Origin: Escherichia phage vB_EcoM_ESCO9
Sequence record: OM386654.1
Length of the DNA stretch: 64,000 nucleotides
Reading direction: 5' to 3' (one strand)
The position numbers and the translations under genes were made by a program. Shown here piece by piece: positions 3,553 through 18,253 of the stretch. The first letter of the stretch is position 1. Each line of letters starts with the position of its first letter. Under the pieces are notes generated by a model, which ran no database searches, was not told the origin of the DNA, and was given only the letters and a program-made list of their open reading frames with translations.

Positions 3553-3961
3553 TTTCTACCTCCCCATAATGCTAACATTTTATTGAAAAATGGAAACGCG
3601 TCGTGCGCGGTATGCAAACCACTATACAGACATTTTTATTCAATGCAAGCATTATTTGCATCTTCGATTCTGTCTTTCACCCACTGCAATAATGGAGGAA
3701 TTAGTATAGGTATTCCCTATCAATTATTCTATATATACCTATTATTTTTAACACACCCCTTTGTACATAATATAGACAAATAAATATCTATGCCACAAAA
3801 ATTTTCCGGTATACCCGATTTATTTCGACACACCCCCTTTTCATAAGCGTAAAGTCAATAATATCAATAACTTGCCGCAAAATACTGCTCGCTTGCGAGA
3901 GGTGCTTAACGCGATTTTCAGCGCCCCCGATTTCTGCCGACCGTCCCCCTCAAATATCAAT

Positions 3962-3980
3962 GAGAATTATTATCATTTGC
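3962..3980. promoter_or_regulatory. Fur-box-like site
   Basis: gagaattattatcatttgc versus Fur consensus GATAATGATAATCATTATC (about 14 of 19). Confidence 0.35.
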
Positions 3981-4156
3981 ATTATCATTCAATGACTTAT
4001 AAGACTTTTGATTATTTTCTGAGCAAGAAAGGCACTACTCACAACAAAACAGATAAATTCTAAGTAAATCAATGGCTTGGCATTTCTAAACATCTATATA
4101 CACCTTGCCAAATGAAATGATCCTGCGTGAAATAGTGCTACCCGTGGAAGATAGCT

Positions 4157-4175
4157 GATAATGATTATCATTTGC
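4157..4175. promoter_or_regulatory. Fur-box-like site (best match)
   Basis: gataatgattatcatttgc matches Fur consensus at 16 of 19 positions. Confidence 0.5.
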
Positions 4176-4512
4176 ATATTTTCTATACTATAAAACACCC
4201 TAAAAATCAAGATAATTCTAATTTATTGCGCTTTTAAGAAAGTAGGCTCAACAAATGATAGGCTATATGGGGGGCAATAGTATGAAAAACCATCTATTCA
4301 TATATAAATAATTTTGCGCAATAGTGTTAATATTTTTCTTGACAAGAAAGATTTCTTTGTGTTCACATAGCGCCCCCTGGAAGGTGGCGCATTATGATCA
4401 TCAGCATCATTATTCACGATGTTTATTATTGTATAGCTTATTATTTAGCTTATATTATAGCCAATGTTCTAAACATTAGCTAATAATAACGCACCGCAAC
4501 AATGTAAGGGAT

Positions 4513-4556
4513 ACAATATACAATTGTATATTGTTGCGCTTGCAGTTGTTGCAAGC
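4513..4556. repeat. two adjacent perfect palindromes
   Basis: acaatatacaattgtatattgt (22 bp perfect inverted repeat) followed by gcttgca-gttgt-tgcaagc. Confidence 0.6.
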
Positions 4557-4695
4557 TACATAAGCACAAATAATGACTATCGGTGATGGTTATTATGTGG
4601 GGTGTGTAGTTGCGTTATTATTAGCCGCCTATGTGTCCGGCATAGGCTGCTAATGATACGCTTGCGAATTATATTTCTTGTTATAGTTATTGTAT

Positions 4696-5050
4696 GGAAT
4701 GATTACCACATGAAATGGTTACTGTATGCAATGATTACTGTATGAAATGATTATCTAAGTAATAGATAGGAAGGTAAAGATTAGACCATAAATAGATAGG
4801 ATGTGAATTATTTAGTAATGTTACTAACAATTTAATAGTTACTTTGTGCAACAATTCGATAGATTATAATTGTAGTTTTAAGGGTTAGATAGATTATATT
4901 TAGCTTAGTAATGATTTATATTAGTTATTATTGTTTAATACAATGTTATCAATGAGATAGTAACAGTAAGTTATAAATAAAGGTGAGATAATTAGTTTTA
5001 ATTTAGTTAGATAACTTATTATTTTATAGGTTAGATGGTCTTAAGTTAAG
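4696..5050. repeat. AT-rich iteron-like short direct repeats
   Basis: Repeated words aatgattac, tgtatg(a/c)aat, aatagatagg, ggttagat(a/g)g. Confidence 0.45.
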
Positions 5051-5122
5051 AATGATTCTCATTATTGCATTATGCAATTTATTGCATAAATAATCAGCTA
5101 TAAATAAGAATGATTATCATTT
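5051..5122. promoter_or_regulatory. Fur-box-like sites plus palindrome
   Basis: gaatgattctcattattgc and agaatgattatcattt; palindrome ttgcattatgcaa between them. Confidence 0.4.
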
Positions 5123-5320
5123 AAGAGGAAAGACAAGAAAAAGGCTGTTTTTGCCAGGTAATTACATGAAGAAATTAAAAATAAGCGGTCTAAAACACGT
5201 TGTAAGCGCCTTATGATCTTCATGGTATGGTTGTTCATCTGCTCCTTGATTAGCTCGATACCGCGATCTATTCACTTTTTTCGGTGAACGTTTTTGATAG
5301 GTAAAAGCTATCATCTTTAT

Positions 5321-5353
5321 TTAGGTAAAAAGAAAGGGCGCAATAAGCGCCCT
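5321..5353 (-). terminator. intrinsic terminator after gene 5369..5752
   Basis: Stem agggcgc/gcgccct followed by T-run on the minus strand. Confidence 0.55.
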
Positions 5354-15257: not shown

Positions 15258-15632
15258 GAATATTTTTAAAAAATAATAACCGCAACTACAATCCAAAATG
15301 GAACGGCAAGAATGATAGCGTTAATCGTTCCAACCGTCAAGCTGTTTTCTTTCTTGATCATCGTTATCAACCTTTTATAAGTAATGTTATTGTGACGGTG
15401 GATTATGGAGATCCTCACCTTTGCCCGTCCTACATTGCGCCCTCCTTTTGTTTATTGTCGTTGTGCCTCGCCCCCTCGACAAGATGAATAATACGCTACC
15501 AGGTGAGGAACGTCAACCCCTTTTTTAATCTTTTTTTCATTTCTTTTTTTTTTTGCTTGCTATCTATAAAGGAAAGGGCTATTATCTTTCTACCGCGCCA
15601 ACCAGGGCGCACATCAAAGAAAGGGCGATACC

Positions 15633-15899
15633 ATGACAAATACTACTCTACACCTCATGCACTCATTAGGCTGGCAAGGCGGCACGGTGCACCAGGTAGC
15701 AAGCGCAACGGGCTTAAAGGTTGAAACCGTTCTCAACCTGGGCGATCATAAGGTGGAAGAAATAGATCATTTTGATCCGTTCGCCAATGGTTATCTATGG
15801 GCTTGCAGTGGCGGCGGGGAAAGCAAGATACCACCAGGGGCGCGGGGCGATATGTATTTTTGGTTAGGTGTCCTATCCTGGCAAGAAAACAAAAAGTAA
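15633..15899 (+). CDS. hypothetical protein (uncertain)
   Basis: 88 aa plus-strand ORF in a locally GC-rich patch; weak AAAGGG RBS. Confidence 0.3.
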   Translation: MTNTTLHLMHSLGWQGGTVHQVASATGLKVETVLNLGDHKVEEIDHFDPFANGYLWACSGGGESKIPPGARGDMYFWLGVLSWQENKK

Positions 15900-15901
15900 T
15901 A

Positions 15902-15930
15902 TTGACAAGCCCAGGGATCGGGCTTATACT
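15902..15930 (+). promoter_or_regulatory. near-consensus sigma70-type promoter with no obvious downstream ORF
   Basis: TTGACA, 17 nt, TATACT. Confidence 0.5.
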
Positions 15931-16160
15931 GTTTTACATACAGAAGAGGAAACGCCACCCCCACGGCGTAAAGGCGGGGCTAACATACCAGGGGGCACTG
16001 GTTGGAAGGTTGATCGCCGGTAGCTCGTCTAAAATAAATTTGTAAAGAAATGTAAAGATAAAAATAATCGCTTGCTTTTGTTGTTGGTTATGCTATTCTT
16101 ATTGTATGGCGAGGGGACACGGGAGCGCGAGACAAACACCGCCCCTGCGCGTTATTCTCT

Positions 16161-16275
16161 AAATGAGAAAATTCTCATTTGCTAATGATTCTCATTCTCT
16201 TACTGAGAATGATTATCACTTACATAGTTAAATGATAATGATTCTCATTTACAAACGAAAATGATTCTCATTAAC
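16161..16275. promoter_or_regulatory. cluster of about five Fur-box-like sites
   Basis: aaatgagaaaattctcattt palindrome, gagaatgattatcacttac, aaatgataatgattctcattt, aaaatgattctcattaac. Confidence 0.5.
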
Positions 16276-16289
16276 ACACCTATAAAAAC

Positions 16290-16500
16290 ACGAAATTGAA
16301 CTTTTCATTTTTGATTTTTCTACGGAAAAAGGCAAAAAAACTTTAAATAAACTGGGGAATTTTTAAAAAATTGAAGTTTTCATTTTCAAAATCTGGATAG
16401 AAATACATACAAAAACTTTAAATAATTTTGACCAAACTTGAACTTTTCATTTTCAAAATTTGTACCCAAAAATCTGTAAAAACTTTAAATAATTTTGTAC
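16290..16500. repeat. three tandem ~67 bp direct repeats
   Basis: Each unit has TTGAAcTTTTCATTTTcaaaat ... aaaaactttaaataatttt. Confidence 0.6.
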
Positions 16501-16711
16501 TTTTTATAAAAATGATTTTACTGTTCTGTTATAAGTAGTAGTTAAGAGATAGTATGTCTTTTAAAGATCAGATACCATAGTCAAACAAACAAATTAAATA
16601 CTTTATTAACAGAGTACAGAATAATATTTACTCTGGATATATTATTCAGAGGGTGGATTTCCGTACATGAAACCCACACCCCTTTTTATAAAAATAAAAA
16701 TTTTCAAAATA

Positions 16712-17263
16712 TCAGGAAATATCAGATTGTGCTTTTAGATAAACAGCAAGGTCTGTATGCCATTTTCCTAAAAGATTTTGTCCTTTCCAACAGTCCTTAT
16801 TTTCCACGTCACGATCCCACATTCCCATTTTGATACCATAAATAGAATCATAAGGGCTTGCCTCTACGAACTCCTTATCTGCGTAAGCGATAAGTTTATT
16901 TTTGAGATCTTCATTTTGTGTGTATTTAAGATACAAACCACGCTTGACAATCTTCTCCCGTAAAGAAGTCCAAGTAGCTTCATCGTAATCTTTAACTAAT
17001 CTACCTAGTCGCTTATAATATGCTTGTTCTTTTTCTCCTGTATATCTTAGATCTCCGGTTAAAATAGAAGATGCAATACTGTAATCATAAAACAAACATG
17101 CTTTTCTCCACATCATATATTGTTCCACACAAGTAAATTCAACAGAACTTGTAATAGAATTATTATACTTGGGTGCTAAAGGTTCAATAAAAGATGATAG
17201 ATACCAGTTGCTAAATTCATCTTTTGCTGAAAAGAAGAACACATACTTATCAGTAATCCGCAT
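16712..17263 (-). CDS. NADAR-domain protein (YbiA-like)
   Basis: FFFSAKDEFSNWYLSSF ... EQYMMWRKACLF ... EASPYDSIYGIKMG ... KGQNLLGKWHTDL resemble E. coli YbiA motifs. Confidence 0.75.
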   Translation of the reverse strand: MRITDKYVFFFSAKDEFSNWYLSSFIEPLAPKYNNSITSSVEFTCVEQYMMWRKACLFYDYSIASSILTGDLRYTGEKEQAYYKRLGRLVKDYDEATWTSLREKIVKRGLYLKYTQNEDLKNKLIAYADKEFVEASPYDSIYGIKMGMWDRDVENKDCWKGQNLLGKWHTDLAVYLKAQSDIS

Positions 17264-18253
17264 TTACACCTCCTTATTGTATACTAACTTGCCACCATAT
17301 TGTGTAATAATTTTTTGAAGATTTTCCAAATCAGAAACACTTACTGTTTCTGTATGACCGTCTTTCAACTCTCTTGCTGTTAAAATACCAGTTTTTAATT
17401 TTTTCTTTATAGCTCTTTCAGCAGCCTTACACTGTTTCACTGTGCTAAAATCATATAAACAAATACGTTCCATAAAAAACAGATTACGGCTATTTTGAAT
17501 GTTTAATCGCCTATCACTATCTTTAGCTATACCAAACTTAAGAGCAACTATAATATTATCATCCTTAACAATATTAATATATAACTGCTGCTGACTATGA
17601 CCAGCACACATAGGACAACCTCGACCGAGGCTTAATAAATTATGAGCACTCCCTATCTGCTCACCATGCACAAGACAAAGATATTTAAACTTACCTATAG
17701 AAGAGGGTTTGGTAATCCAATCTACCCAGACATACCCTTTCCCTTCTACTTCCTTTTTTACCCTATAGGTGATCTGGTCTTCTGTATACCGATAGTTCCC
17801 ACAACGACACGGAATATACCCTCGTTTAAGGTTATCTCCTTCAGAGTAAAATTTACCATCACAAACACCTGCTTGAACATATTCATCATGAGAGCAAACA
17901 GGACATTCAACCATCCAGATAATATTCCTACATCCTTTACCCCGTGTTCCTGTGTTAGTGAAGATAGTGCCTTCCTTAAATTCCCCTGTAGAAAAGAAAT
18001 CTGCAATATGTTGATCGTCGGACATTGTTTGTGACTTCCTTATATTCTTCCTCCTACATTGTGGACAACCGCTACCACATTTAAAACTGTTAATACTTGT
18101 AGTATCCCATTTATAACCACAATGGCACAACAAATCAAGTTTTGTGTGGACCCCTTTCCATTGTCCCGTCCATCCTAAGATTTGGATTTGCTTACTCTCT
18201 GCTATTGGTATACACTCTTCTTTATATTGTTCCCATGATTTTGGTGCTGCCAT
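17264..18253 (-). CDS. Cys-rich zinc-ribbon protein with T5orf172/GIY-YIG-like C-terminal region
   Basis: Four CxxC-type pairs; C-terminal LYINIV...KFGIAKDSDRRL; stop abuts NADAR start. Confidence 0.45.
   Translation of the reverse strand: MAAPKSWEQYKEECIPIAESKQIQILGWTGQWKGVHTKLDLLCHCGYKWDTTSINSFKCGSGCPQCRRKNIRKSQTMSDDQHIADFFSTGEFKEGTIFTNTGTRGKGCRNIIWMVECPVCSHDEYVQAGVCDGKFYSEGDNLKRGYIPCRCGNYRYTEDQITYRVKKEVEGKGYVWVDWITKPSSIGKFKYLCLVHGEQIGSAHNLLSLGRGCPMCAGHSQQQLYINIVKDDNIIVALKFGIAKDSDRRLNIQNSRNLFFMERICLYDFSTVKQCKAAERAIKKKLKTGILTARELKDGHTETVSVSDLENLQKIITQYGGKLVYNKEV

Follow-up and report, generated by a model that had tools for sequence, protein, structure and literature searches.

A three-unit direct-repeat array beside a Fur-box cluster in phi92-like and rV5-like phages: a conserved cis element, probably protein-binding and possibly part of a replication origin

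The array of direct repeats at positions 16293-16500 of a 64,000-nucleotide stretch of DNA from Escherichia phage vB_EcoM_ESCO9 (OM386654.1; the whole stretch is here called the window) is genuine, a cis element with deep conservation that still awaits an explanation. Its three units are best read as composite binding sites, cis-acting and present as a single-copy array, at which a sequence-specific protein, probably encoded by the phage, would dock on bent double-stranded DNA. More tentatively, at a probability of about 0.35, the array is seen as the protein-loading or unwinding part of a transcription-activated phage replication origin. The window belongs to a phi92-like phage (Justusliebigvirus, Stephanstirmvirinae), the 821 bp around the array being 100% identical to the corresponding DNA of Escherichia phage Antha and 97.7-99.8% identical to that of the other phi92-like records listed. 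Genome-wide statistics refer to the 145,329-bp Antha genome, joined from three pieces, and in the array region a window position is the Antha position minus 10325. Therapy cocktails and the BASEL collection make wide use of rV5-like and phi92-like phages, and no description of this region was found in the papers searched on rV5, phi92, PVP-SE1 and BASEL. As a single-copy, deeply conserved cis element, the array is directly testable.

A preliminary description, made from the sequence without database searches, had reported three tandem direct repeats of ~67 bp. Three real units do lie head to tail and in register (16293-16371, 16368-16446 and 16435-16513 in a repeat self-search of the window), but a uniform period of ~67 bp does not hold, the start-to-start spacing being 75 and then 67 bp. 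Copy 1 is the most diverged of the three, its identity being 65% to copy 2 and 72% to copy 3, and Tandem Repeats Finder (TRF) detects units 2-3 as an array of period 67 (81% matches, score 178). Each unit follows the same plan: box A (20 nt) and box B (17 nt) are separated by 20 nt of linker whose sequence is free. Box A, TTGAACTTTTCATTTTCAAAAT, is matched exactly at 16438 and with one mismatch at 16371, where 0.02 matches are expected in shuffles of the window, and its more diverged version in unit 1, at 16296, reads TTGAACTTTTCATTTTTGATTT. Box B, AAAAACTTTAAATAATTTTG, is matched exactly at 16411 and 16478 and with three mismatches at 16336 (0.07 expected in shuffles), and in every unit TTGAAC and CTTTAAATA stand at an offset of 45 nt (16296/16341, 16371/16416, 16438/16483). 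The divergence of the linkers between shared blocks, also noted in that description, is borne out by the 20-nt inter-box linkers, which are of equal length and unrelated in sequence. Exact 20-22-mers recur at a fixed internal offset within the units, so the similarity exceeds that of A/T runs, the trivial outcome against which self-alignment had been proposed as a check. The array was from the outset held not to be a set of clustered regularly interspaced short palindromic repeats (CRISPR), and with two unlike boxes per unit in place of identical repeats of 23-50 nt between unique spacers of similar length, box gaps of 20 nt inside a unit and 22-30 nt from unit to unit, and no cas genes among the neighbours, that possibility is rejected here also.

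When the array is compared by BLAST with the 145-kb genome, this locus alone matches, so that it is a single-copy element. Outside the array the genome has no more copies of a 14-mer and a 10-mer of box B than shuffles do, which disposes of a phage-specific promoter class as a candidate, and the boxes were not found upstream of other genes in the genome. Between 16046 and 16711 there is no ORF (open reading frame) of at least 40 aa; the small ORFs called across the array in other GenBank records, of which there are hundreds, are spurious. In the record of phage inny, units 2-3 are already marked, as an unexplained 'repeat_region'.

The array itself is present in 61 phage records, 55 of them at an identity of at least 95% and 56 covering at least 80% of the query, and the part upstream of it (elements E1 and E2 and the Fur boxes, dealt with below) in 343-359 records of Stephanstirmvirinae and Vequintavirinae. 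Reading of the region in about 20 lineages, among them ten IMG/VR contigs (including phiTE, CR3 and BIS47-like ones), gave the three-unit layout in the phi92-like phages, phAPEC8, Citrobacter Tr1 and Klebsiella KP2025 among the Stephanstirmvirinae, as well as in PVP-SE1, NINP13076, CR8, CR3-like phages, phiTE, POP18, Kashira, ABPH49, KB57, BIS47-like phages and the rV5-like FFH2. Where the sequence reached, the same order of elements, with three units after the Fur boxes, is found in every lineage but one, Klebsiella KP13-16. The Stephanstirmvirinae unit has a box A', ACTTTAAATTTTGCTTTTG, the free 20-nt linker and box B, GAAAAACTTTAAATAAT, at a unit spacing of 75-76 and then 66-67 in three genera; box A of the phi92 type has drifted from A', and in phAPEC8 the middle unit is degenerate. 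The Vequintavirinae unit is AATACG-N18-CGATCGAG(A/T)AC, often with AAAAATTTTTTCG before it, the offset from AATACG to CGATCGAG being exactly 24 nt in the units checked and the unit spacing 63-67 and then 67-78; FFH2 reads GAAAACGAAAAAC-AGATCGAGTAC. The inter-box distance is 45-46 bp in the former subfamily and 24 bp in the latter. What both subfamilies have is AAAAAC followed by a 6-bp palindrome, TTTAAA in Stephanstirmvirinae as against CGATCG in Vequintavirinae, lengthened in some units to CTCGATCGAG or TCTCGATCGAGA. The B-type box lies on the + strand in every case. An inversion of the array between the subfamilies was considered. Turned to its reverse complement, the phi92-type box A has GAAAATGAAAAGT in common with Vequintavirinae units and outscores the forward orientation; for the other Stephanstirmvirinae neither orientation of the array is preferred in comparison with Vequintavirinae. 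Plasmids and E. coli genomes yielded no homologues besides Fur boxes in Moraxella plasmids, and of the 17 matches to ACTTTAAAT-N37-ACTTTAAAT in an IMG/VR scan none was recognised as having this layout, the only one read through (L024) being unrelated.

It is from this pattern that a protein is suspected. Retention of unit number and spacings together with freedom of the linkers argues for a geometric constraint on duplex DNA, and the replacement of one palindrome by another in two subfamilies that share hosts argues for a dimeric, probably phage-encoded DNA-binding protein co-evolving with its site, rather than for a host factor or an RNA motif. The physical properties of the DNA are also pertinent. 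With a G+C content of 22% and 40% of its bases in A4+/T4+ tracts, the array ranks first genome-wide for such tracts phased at 9.5-11.5 bp (99.9th percentile, in a score to which the repeat period may add harmonics), and its DNA is predicted to be strongly bent. Among 200-bp stretches of the genome, 16445-16644, which overlaps the array, ranks third from the bottom in stability. Folded as RNA, the array does no better than shuffles on either strand (z = +0.34 and +0.82), and a structured RNA formed by the array of this phage was accordingly rejected; the + strand of the PVP-SE1 array does fold better than shuffles (z = −3.4), via pairing among its palindromic boxes.

The setting of the array is an ORF-free gap of ~800 bp, bounded on the left by a small + strand ORF (15633-15899) and on the right by the 3′ end of a leftward operon for a NADAR protein, an endonuclease and an AAA+ ATPase, so that the array is positioned between converging transcription units. 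From left to right the gap holds promoter P1, E1, TTTGTAAAGAAATGTAAAGA, putative promoter P2, E2, the Fur-box cluster, the array, ~140 bp of A+T-rich DNA, a hairpin with a T-run and a AAATATCA doublet (Table 1).

Table 1. Elements of the non-coding unit containing the repeat array, in window coordinates
Feature	Position	Strand	Remarks
Promoter P1, TTGACA-17-TATACT, pointing into the non-coding unit	15902-15930	+	11/12 consensus matches; near-consensus sigma-70
E1, RNA-like: hairpin CGCC/GGCG with loop-to-downstream pseudoknot	15937-16027	+	~84% identity across both subfamilies
Motif TTTGTAAAGAAATGTAAAGA, just 5′ of P2	16036-16056	+	Almost invariant in the 12-phage alignment
Putative promoter P2, TTGCTT-16-TATTCT	16072-16099	+	Inferred from positional conservation; below scan threshold in this phage
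E2, conserved leader, hairpin with invariant loop AGACAAACACC	16106-16151	+	From the alignment
Putative Fur-box cluster	16152-16280		Consensus match; 7 matches in a 13-mer scan
Repeat unit 1	16293-16367	+	Box A 16296-16315, linker, box B 16335-16351; 3′ end is GGGGAATTTTTAAAAAA
Repeat unit 2	16368-16434	+	Box A 16370-16389, 20-nt linker, box B 16410-16426
Repeat unit 3	16435-16500	+	Box A 16437-16456, 20-nt linker, box B 16477-16493
A+T-rich stretch with local inverted repeats	16501-16645		Sequence differs between genera
Hairpin, then CTTTTTAT	16648-16692	+	Fold −11.8 kcal/mol, with T-run
AAATATCA doublet, right border	16707-16725	+	TRF; overlaps 3′ end of NADAR gene

In an alignment of 12 phages used for the promoters, E1 and E2, P1 is a promoter kept at the same position in all 12, and the hexamers of P2 in relatives are TTGATC or TTGACC and TATTAT or TAATAT. 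E1, ~90 nt long and directly following P1, is a candidate new structured RNA: the loop and downstream partners of its pseudoknot read CCCC/GGGG, GCCCC/GGGGC, CCAG/CTGG or ACCAA/TTGGT depending on the phage, both sides changing in three of the five pairs. The E2 stem varies by lineage (GCGA/TCGC, CGGG/CCCG and CGG/CCG, judged by eye with pairs uncounted). Rfam returned nothing at the gathering threshold across the whole window, and at E up to 10 the segment 15850-16720 gave chance matches on palindromic Fur boxes only. That the array lies next to a Fur-like cluster, as first described, is upheld: the 19-mers at 16181, 16205, 16234 and 16257, each with 3-4 mismatches to GATAATGATAATCATTATC, span 16181-16275, and by the yardstick of a clustered 19-bp consensus these four sites in 95 bp resemble a Fur operator, with weaker Fur-like sites at 16199 and 16228. 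The hairpin near 16690 is the probable end of rightward transcripts; its − strand folds at −20.1 kcal/mol and is without a T-run, and Tr1 has an equivalent hairpin followed by TTTTTAT. The AAATATCA doublet, the sole one in the 145-kb genome, stands at the same border in both subfamilies, though the adjoining gene differs.

In Certrevirus-like phages two further hairpins are found 3′ of the array (L010 2560-2660, L014 2040-2130, and L040), with a common loop motif, TTATG, and stems that covary (AATGAGT/ACTCATT, TAACG/CGTTA and AATGTA/TACATT, again by eye and uncounted), which suggests a functional 3′ domain of an RNA.

For the array as part of an origin, where we infer protein binding, transcription through the array and origin function, the sequence of events would be as follows. 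Each unit would offer a protein two boxes at a fixed distance on bent, A+T-rich DNA, with three units kept. Rightward transcripts from P1 and P2 would pass first the Fur-box cluster and then the array before terminating at the hairpin near 16690, and transcription or an R-loop, together with the bound protein, would open the easily melted DNA and so let the T7-type primase-helicase and Pol I, both encoded by the phage, be loaded. Fur sitting on its boxes, which separate the promoters from the array, could modulate the read-through. An origin is favoured among the readings because single-copy cis elements in a virulent phage are chiefly origins or packaging sites, and because two same-direction promoters, a closing hairpin with T-run, bent meltable DNA and T7-type machinery coincide in a group whose origin is unmapped, skew analysis of rV5 having found transcription switches only (PMC3606486).

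Several features weigh against an origin. Klebsiella KP13-16 is without the array yet has P1, E1, P2, E2 and the Fur boxes, and in place of the array carries an unrelated motif of ~40 nt twice, about 190 bp apart. The minimum of the cumulative GC skew is at ~21 kb, away from the array, and tracks gene orientation. No initiator or other DNA-binding gene covarying with the type of array is present among the neighbours: the small upstream ORF is of four unrelated types that do not follow array type, the right-hand neighbours are NADAR/DUF6939 proteins or acidic proteins with no Pfam match, and the nearby AAA+ protein is of the p97/FtsH type and not DnaA/Orc-like. Since neither the upstream ORF types nor the right-hand genes track array type, a cognate binding protein among the neighbours was rejected. 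With ample iron, Fur would occupy its sites and block read-through, hardly an obvious logic for a replication switch. E1, E2 and the Certrevirus-like hairpins show that the unit would make functional RNA, and the array could act as RNA itself. Moreover, the ORF-free region at 3900-5330 holds the least stable 200-bp stretch of the genome as well as Fur boxes, and is an equally good origin candidate.

That region, ~1.4 kb long, is very A+T-rich and has many short direct and inverted repeats, such as four AATGATTAC-like copies at 4683-4762, and is possibly the 'non-coding' box drawn in the rV5 paper. The Fur-box matches outside the cluster are located in it, at 3956-3980, 4157-4175 (the best, with 2/19 mismatches) and 5048-5124. 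Fur boxes in the phage may serve regulation of phage transcripts or titration of host Fur.

The preliminary description had also proposed iterons of an origin or a repeated binding array. Here single copy, fixed number and spacing, a palindromic core and bent meltable DNA are consistent with the proposal, and classical iteron length and spacing are what is lacking. Direct repeats are clustered at one locus, boxes A and B occurring three times and being unique in the genome, and 16445-16644 is an adjacent A+T-rich segment of the sort that serves as unwinding element. However, in place of repeats of ~17-22 bp at a spacing of about two helical turns there are two-box units of 75 and 67 bp with boxes 45 bp apart, and no neighbouring gene is initiator-like, though a cognate gene may lie further away. 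Given the failure on size and spacing, the array is likened to origin arrays in its working and not filed as a member of that family. The closest analogues of iteron type are the lambda origin (four O-binding repeats and an A+T-rich stretch), P4 ori/crr and T4 oriE (iterons and early transcripts). Shared with these are a single-copy cluster of direct repeats, a dyad core and bent DNA beside meltable DNA, in a region crossed, here putatively, by early transcription. Different are the bipartite units of 67-75 bp as against 17-22 bp, the lack of an initiator gene found nearby, and the absence of sequence similarity.

The primary origin of T7 consists of tandem promoters (phi1.1A/B) and an A+T-rich stretch, and T4 oriF and oriG of a promoter and an unwinding element. 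As there, two same-direction promoters are here followed by very A+T-rich DNA, in a phage with a primase-helicase of T7 type and Pol I. Unlike the array unit, the T7 and T4 origins lack both Fur boxes and a conserved triple repeat; the promoters here are, in turn, of host sigma-70 type, and their transcripts would begin with conserved structured elements. A different parallel is with the sopC site of F, tandem 43-bp repeats with an inverted-repeat core, where too each unit is longer than the binding site and has a palindromic core; partition genes are missing here, however, the phage is virulent, and there are three units and not twelve.

Of the alternatives, the one with most in its favour, though unlikely, has the array acting as RNA. 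It would then be the unstructured, A/U-rich middle of a Fur-gated non-coding transcript of ~600-750 nt running from P1 or P2 to the hairpin near 16690, its boxes being sites for an RNA-binding protein or nuclease, and the transcript a sponge or decoy directed, for example, against host defence or a small-RNA chaperone. The array's position in a rightward unit that starts at promoters and closes with a hairpin and T-run fits, as do the covariation of the E1 pseudoknot, an E2 hairpin that differs by lineage, the two covarying hairpins after the array in Certrevirus-like phages and the constant + strand orientation of the B-type box. There is also a precedent in that phiTE, of the same group, encodes a repeat RNA mimicking the ToxI antitoxin (PMC3475682). 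Yet no structure is predicted on either strand in this phage, Rfam yields nothing even at E = 10, a palindrome of DNA type, swapped for another palindrome, forms the conserved core, the strong helical phasing of A/T tracts is a property of duplex DNA, and pseudo-ToxI of phiTE is at another locus and shares no sequence with the array. The likeness to ToxI arrays and to pseudo-ToxI is in having a tandem repeat between promoter and terminator in the genome of an rV5-like phage; a ToxI unit has 36 nt and folds into a pseudoknot, in distinction to the unequal 75/67-bp units here, with no predicted structure and a different locus. A ToxI-like RNA, for which equal units of about 34-40 nt folding as pseudoknots beside a toxin gene would be required, was rejected on those unequal units, the folding scores, the lack of an Rfam match and the lack of a toxin gene, and a ToxI mimic on location, pseudo-ToxI of phiTE lying at 106.7 kb beside tRNA and spanin genes, the array region at ~39.6 kb. 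(BLAST with a ToxI sequence found nothing.)

Less probable than an RNA role is one in which the bent DNA itself matters, as an architectural or silencing element for host nucleoid proteins of H-NS, IHF or Fis type. Together with Fur, it would insulate or tune the collision of the rightward non-coding unit with the leftward NADAR operon, or would help to titrate host proteins. The top genome-wide score for phased A/T tracts, the low G+C content and a location next to a cluster of sites for host Fur, between converging transcription units, are in keeping with this, but bending alone needs neither exact boxes of 17-20 nt nor fixed offsets nor exactly three units over two subfamilies, and a core motif that differs between subfamilies infecting the same hosts argues against a host protein. 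A somewhat more doubtful proposal is that the array is a pac site, on whose boxes the small terminase would assemble ahead of the first headful cut. Occurrence only once in the genome and repeated boxes on bent DNA, the latter known from SPP1 pac and lambda cosB, are what would be expected, and the Vequintavirinae boxes are rich in GATC, as P1 pac is. Furthermore, circular permutation and terminal redundancy are reported for relatives, and phiTE carries out generalised transduction (PMC3475682). Set against these are the large terminase gene, about 75 kb from the array, the lack of a small-terminase gene nearby, and the placement of the array within an early, promoter-driven non-coding unit with Fur boxes. 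We know of no precedent for a pac site in such a unit.

Two remaining explanations have very little in their favour. The preliminary description had pointed to TTGAAC as a −35 hexamer and hence to tandem sigma-70 promoters, and TTGAAC or TTGAAG, matching five of the six consensus −35 positions, is indeed present in all three units; but no −10 hexamer follows 16-18 nt after it in any unit, the single site from a consensus scan is weak and at a non-equivalent position in unit 2, and the motif is not dispersed upstream of other genes. As, moreover, the TTGAAC position reads CTTTAAAT or TTTTAAAT (CTTTAA/TTTTAA) in the sister genera represented by phAPEC8, Tr1 and KP2025, tandem promoters are abandoned as scarcely tenable. 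Equally improbable is a neutral tandem duplication with no function: A+T-rich DNA could be prone to slippage, but unit number and the spacing of boxes and units are equal where linkers and flanking proteins have diverged beyond recognition.

A broader but rather improbable proposal takes the whole 0.8-kb unit as an undescribed control module of rV5-like and phi92-like phages that couples a cis event, most likely the start of replication, to host iron via Fur. The array would in that case be a loading platform for a phage protein, and the runs of Fur-box-like sites beside ~65-bp repeats in T5-like phages would be a convergent version. The wider unit, comprising the new RNA candidate, the Fur-box cluster and the array, is a more interesting object than the array alone. 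Should the array prove to be an origin, phage engineering and the study of host dependence would gain a point of attack; an array acting as RNA would instead be a new non-coding RNA of phages.

Repeat Region 3 of T5, the injection-stop region, has nine DRD repeats, two ~66-bp DRE repeats and DnaA boxes (bioRxiv 10.1101/866236). It is like the region considered here in being a conserved untranslated coliphage region with a run of Fur-box-like sites beside direct repeats of ~61-66 bp; it differs in its DnaA boxes, in having two copies and not three, and in sharing no sequence with the array, and its function is likewise unproven. In the T5-like phage chee24, at the end of the left terminal repeat (L017 1400-1690), Fur-box-like units spaced 23-35 bp apart adjoin two ~61-bp repeats carrying TTATCCACA DnaA boxes. 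Judged by coordinates, these elements seem to correspond to DRD and DRE of Repeat Region 3 in T5, close to the injection-stop site; Fur is not mentioned in the T5 preprint (bioRxiv 10.1101/866236).

In phage cardinal (Justusliebigvirus; L018 788-1381) and in a Mydovirus-like IMG/VR contig (L044), there is an insertion exactly after E1, at a point equivalent to ~16024 of the window. It consists of a 197-aa ORF lacking any Pfam match, a further promoter and a diverged E1 copy, and looks like a mobile cassette of homing type carrying its own replacement E1. Leftward early promoters in phAPEC8 (L006 561-580, 1450-1469 and 2089-2108) are followed by a conserved 5′ hairpin, GGGCGGCAATGGTGCCGCTC, and their equivalents lie to the left of window position 15560. 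The PHIRE 'promoters' annotated in phAPEC8 were considered as a possible link and rejected, being ordinary early promoters with the 5′ hairpin, unrelated to the array. Between the NADAR and AAA+ genes, a gene on the − strand (17264-18253) with CapR and T5orf172 domains and an endonuclease PHROG varies in length among close relatives, with 329 aa here and 390 aa in inny, and is consistent with being a mobile homing endonuclease.

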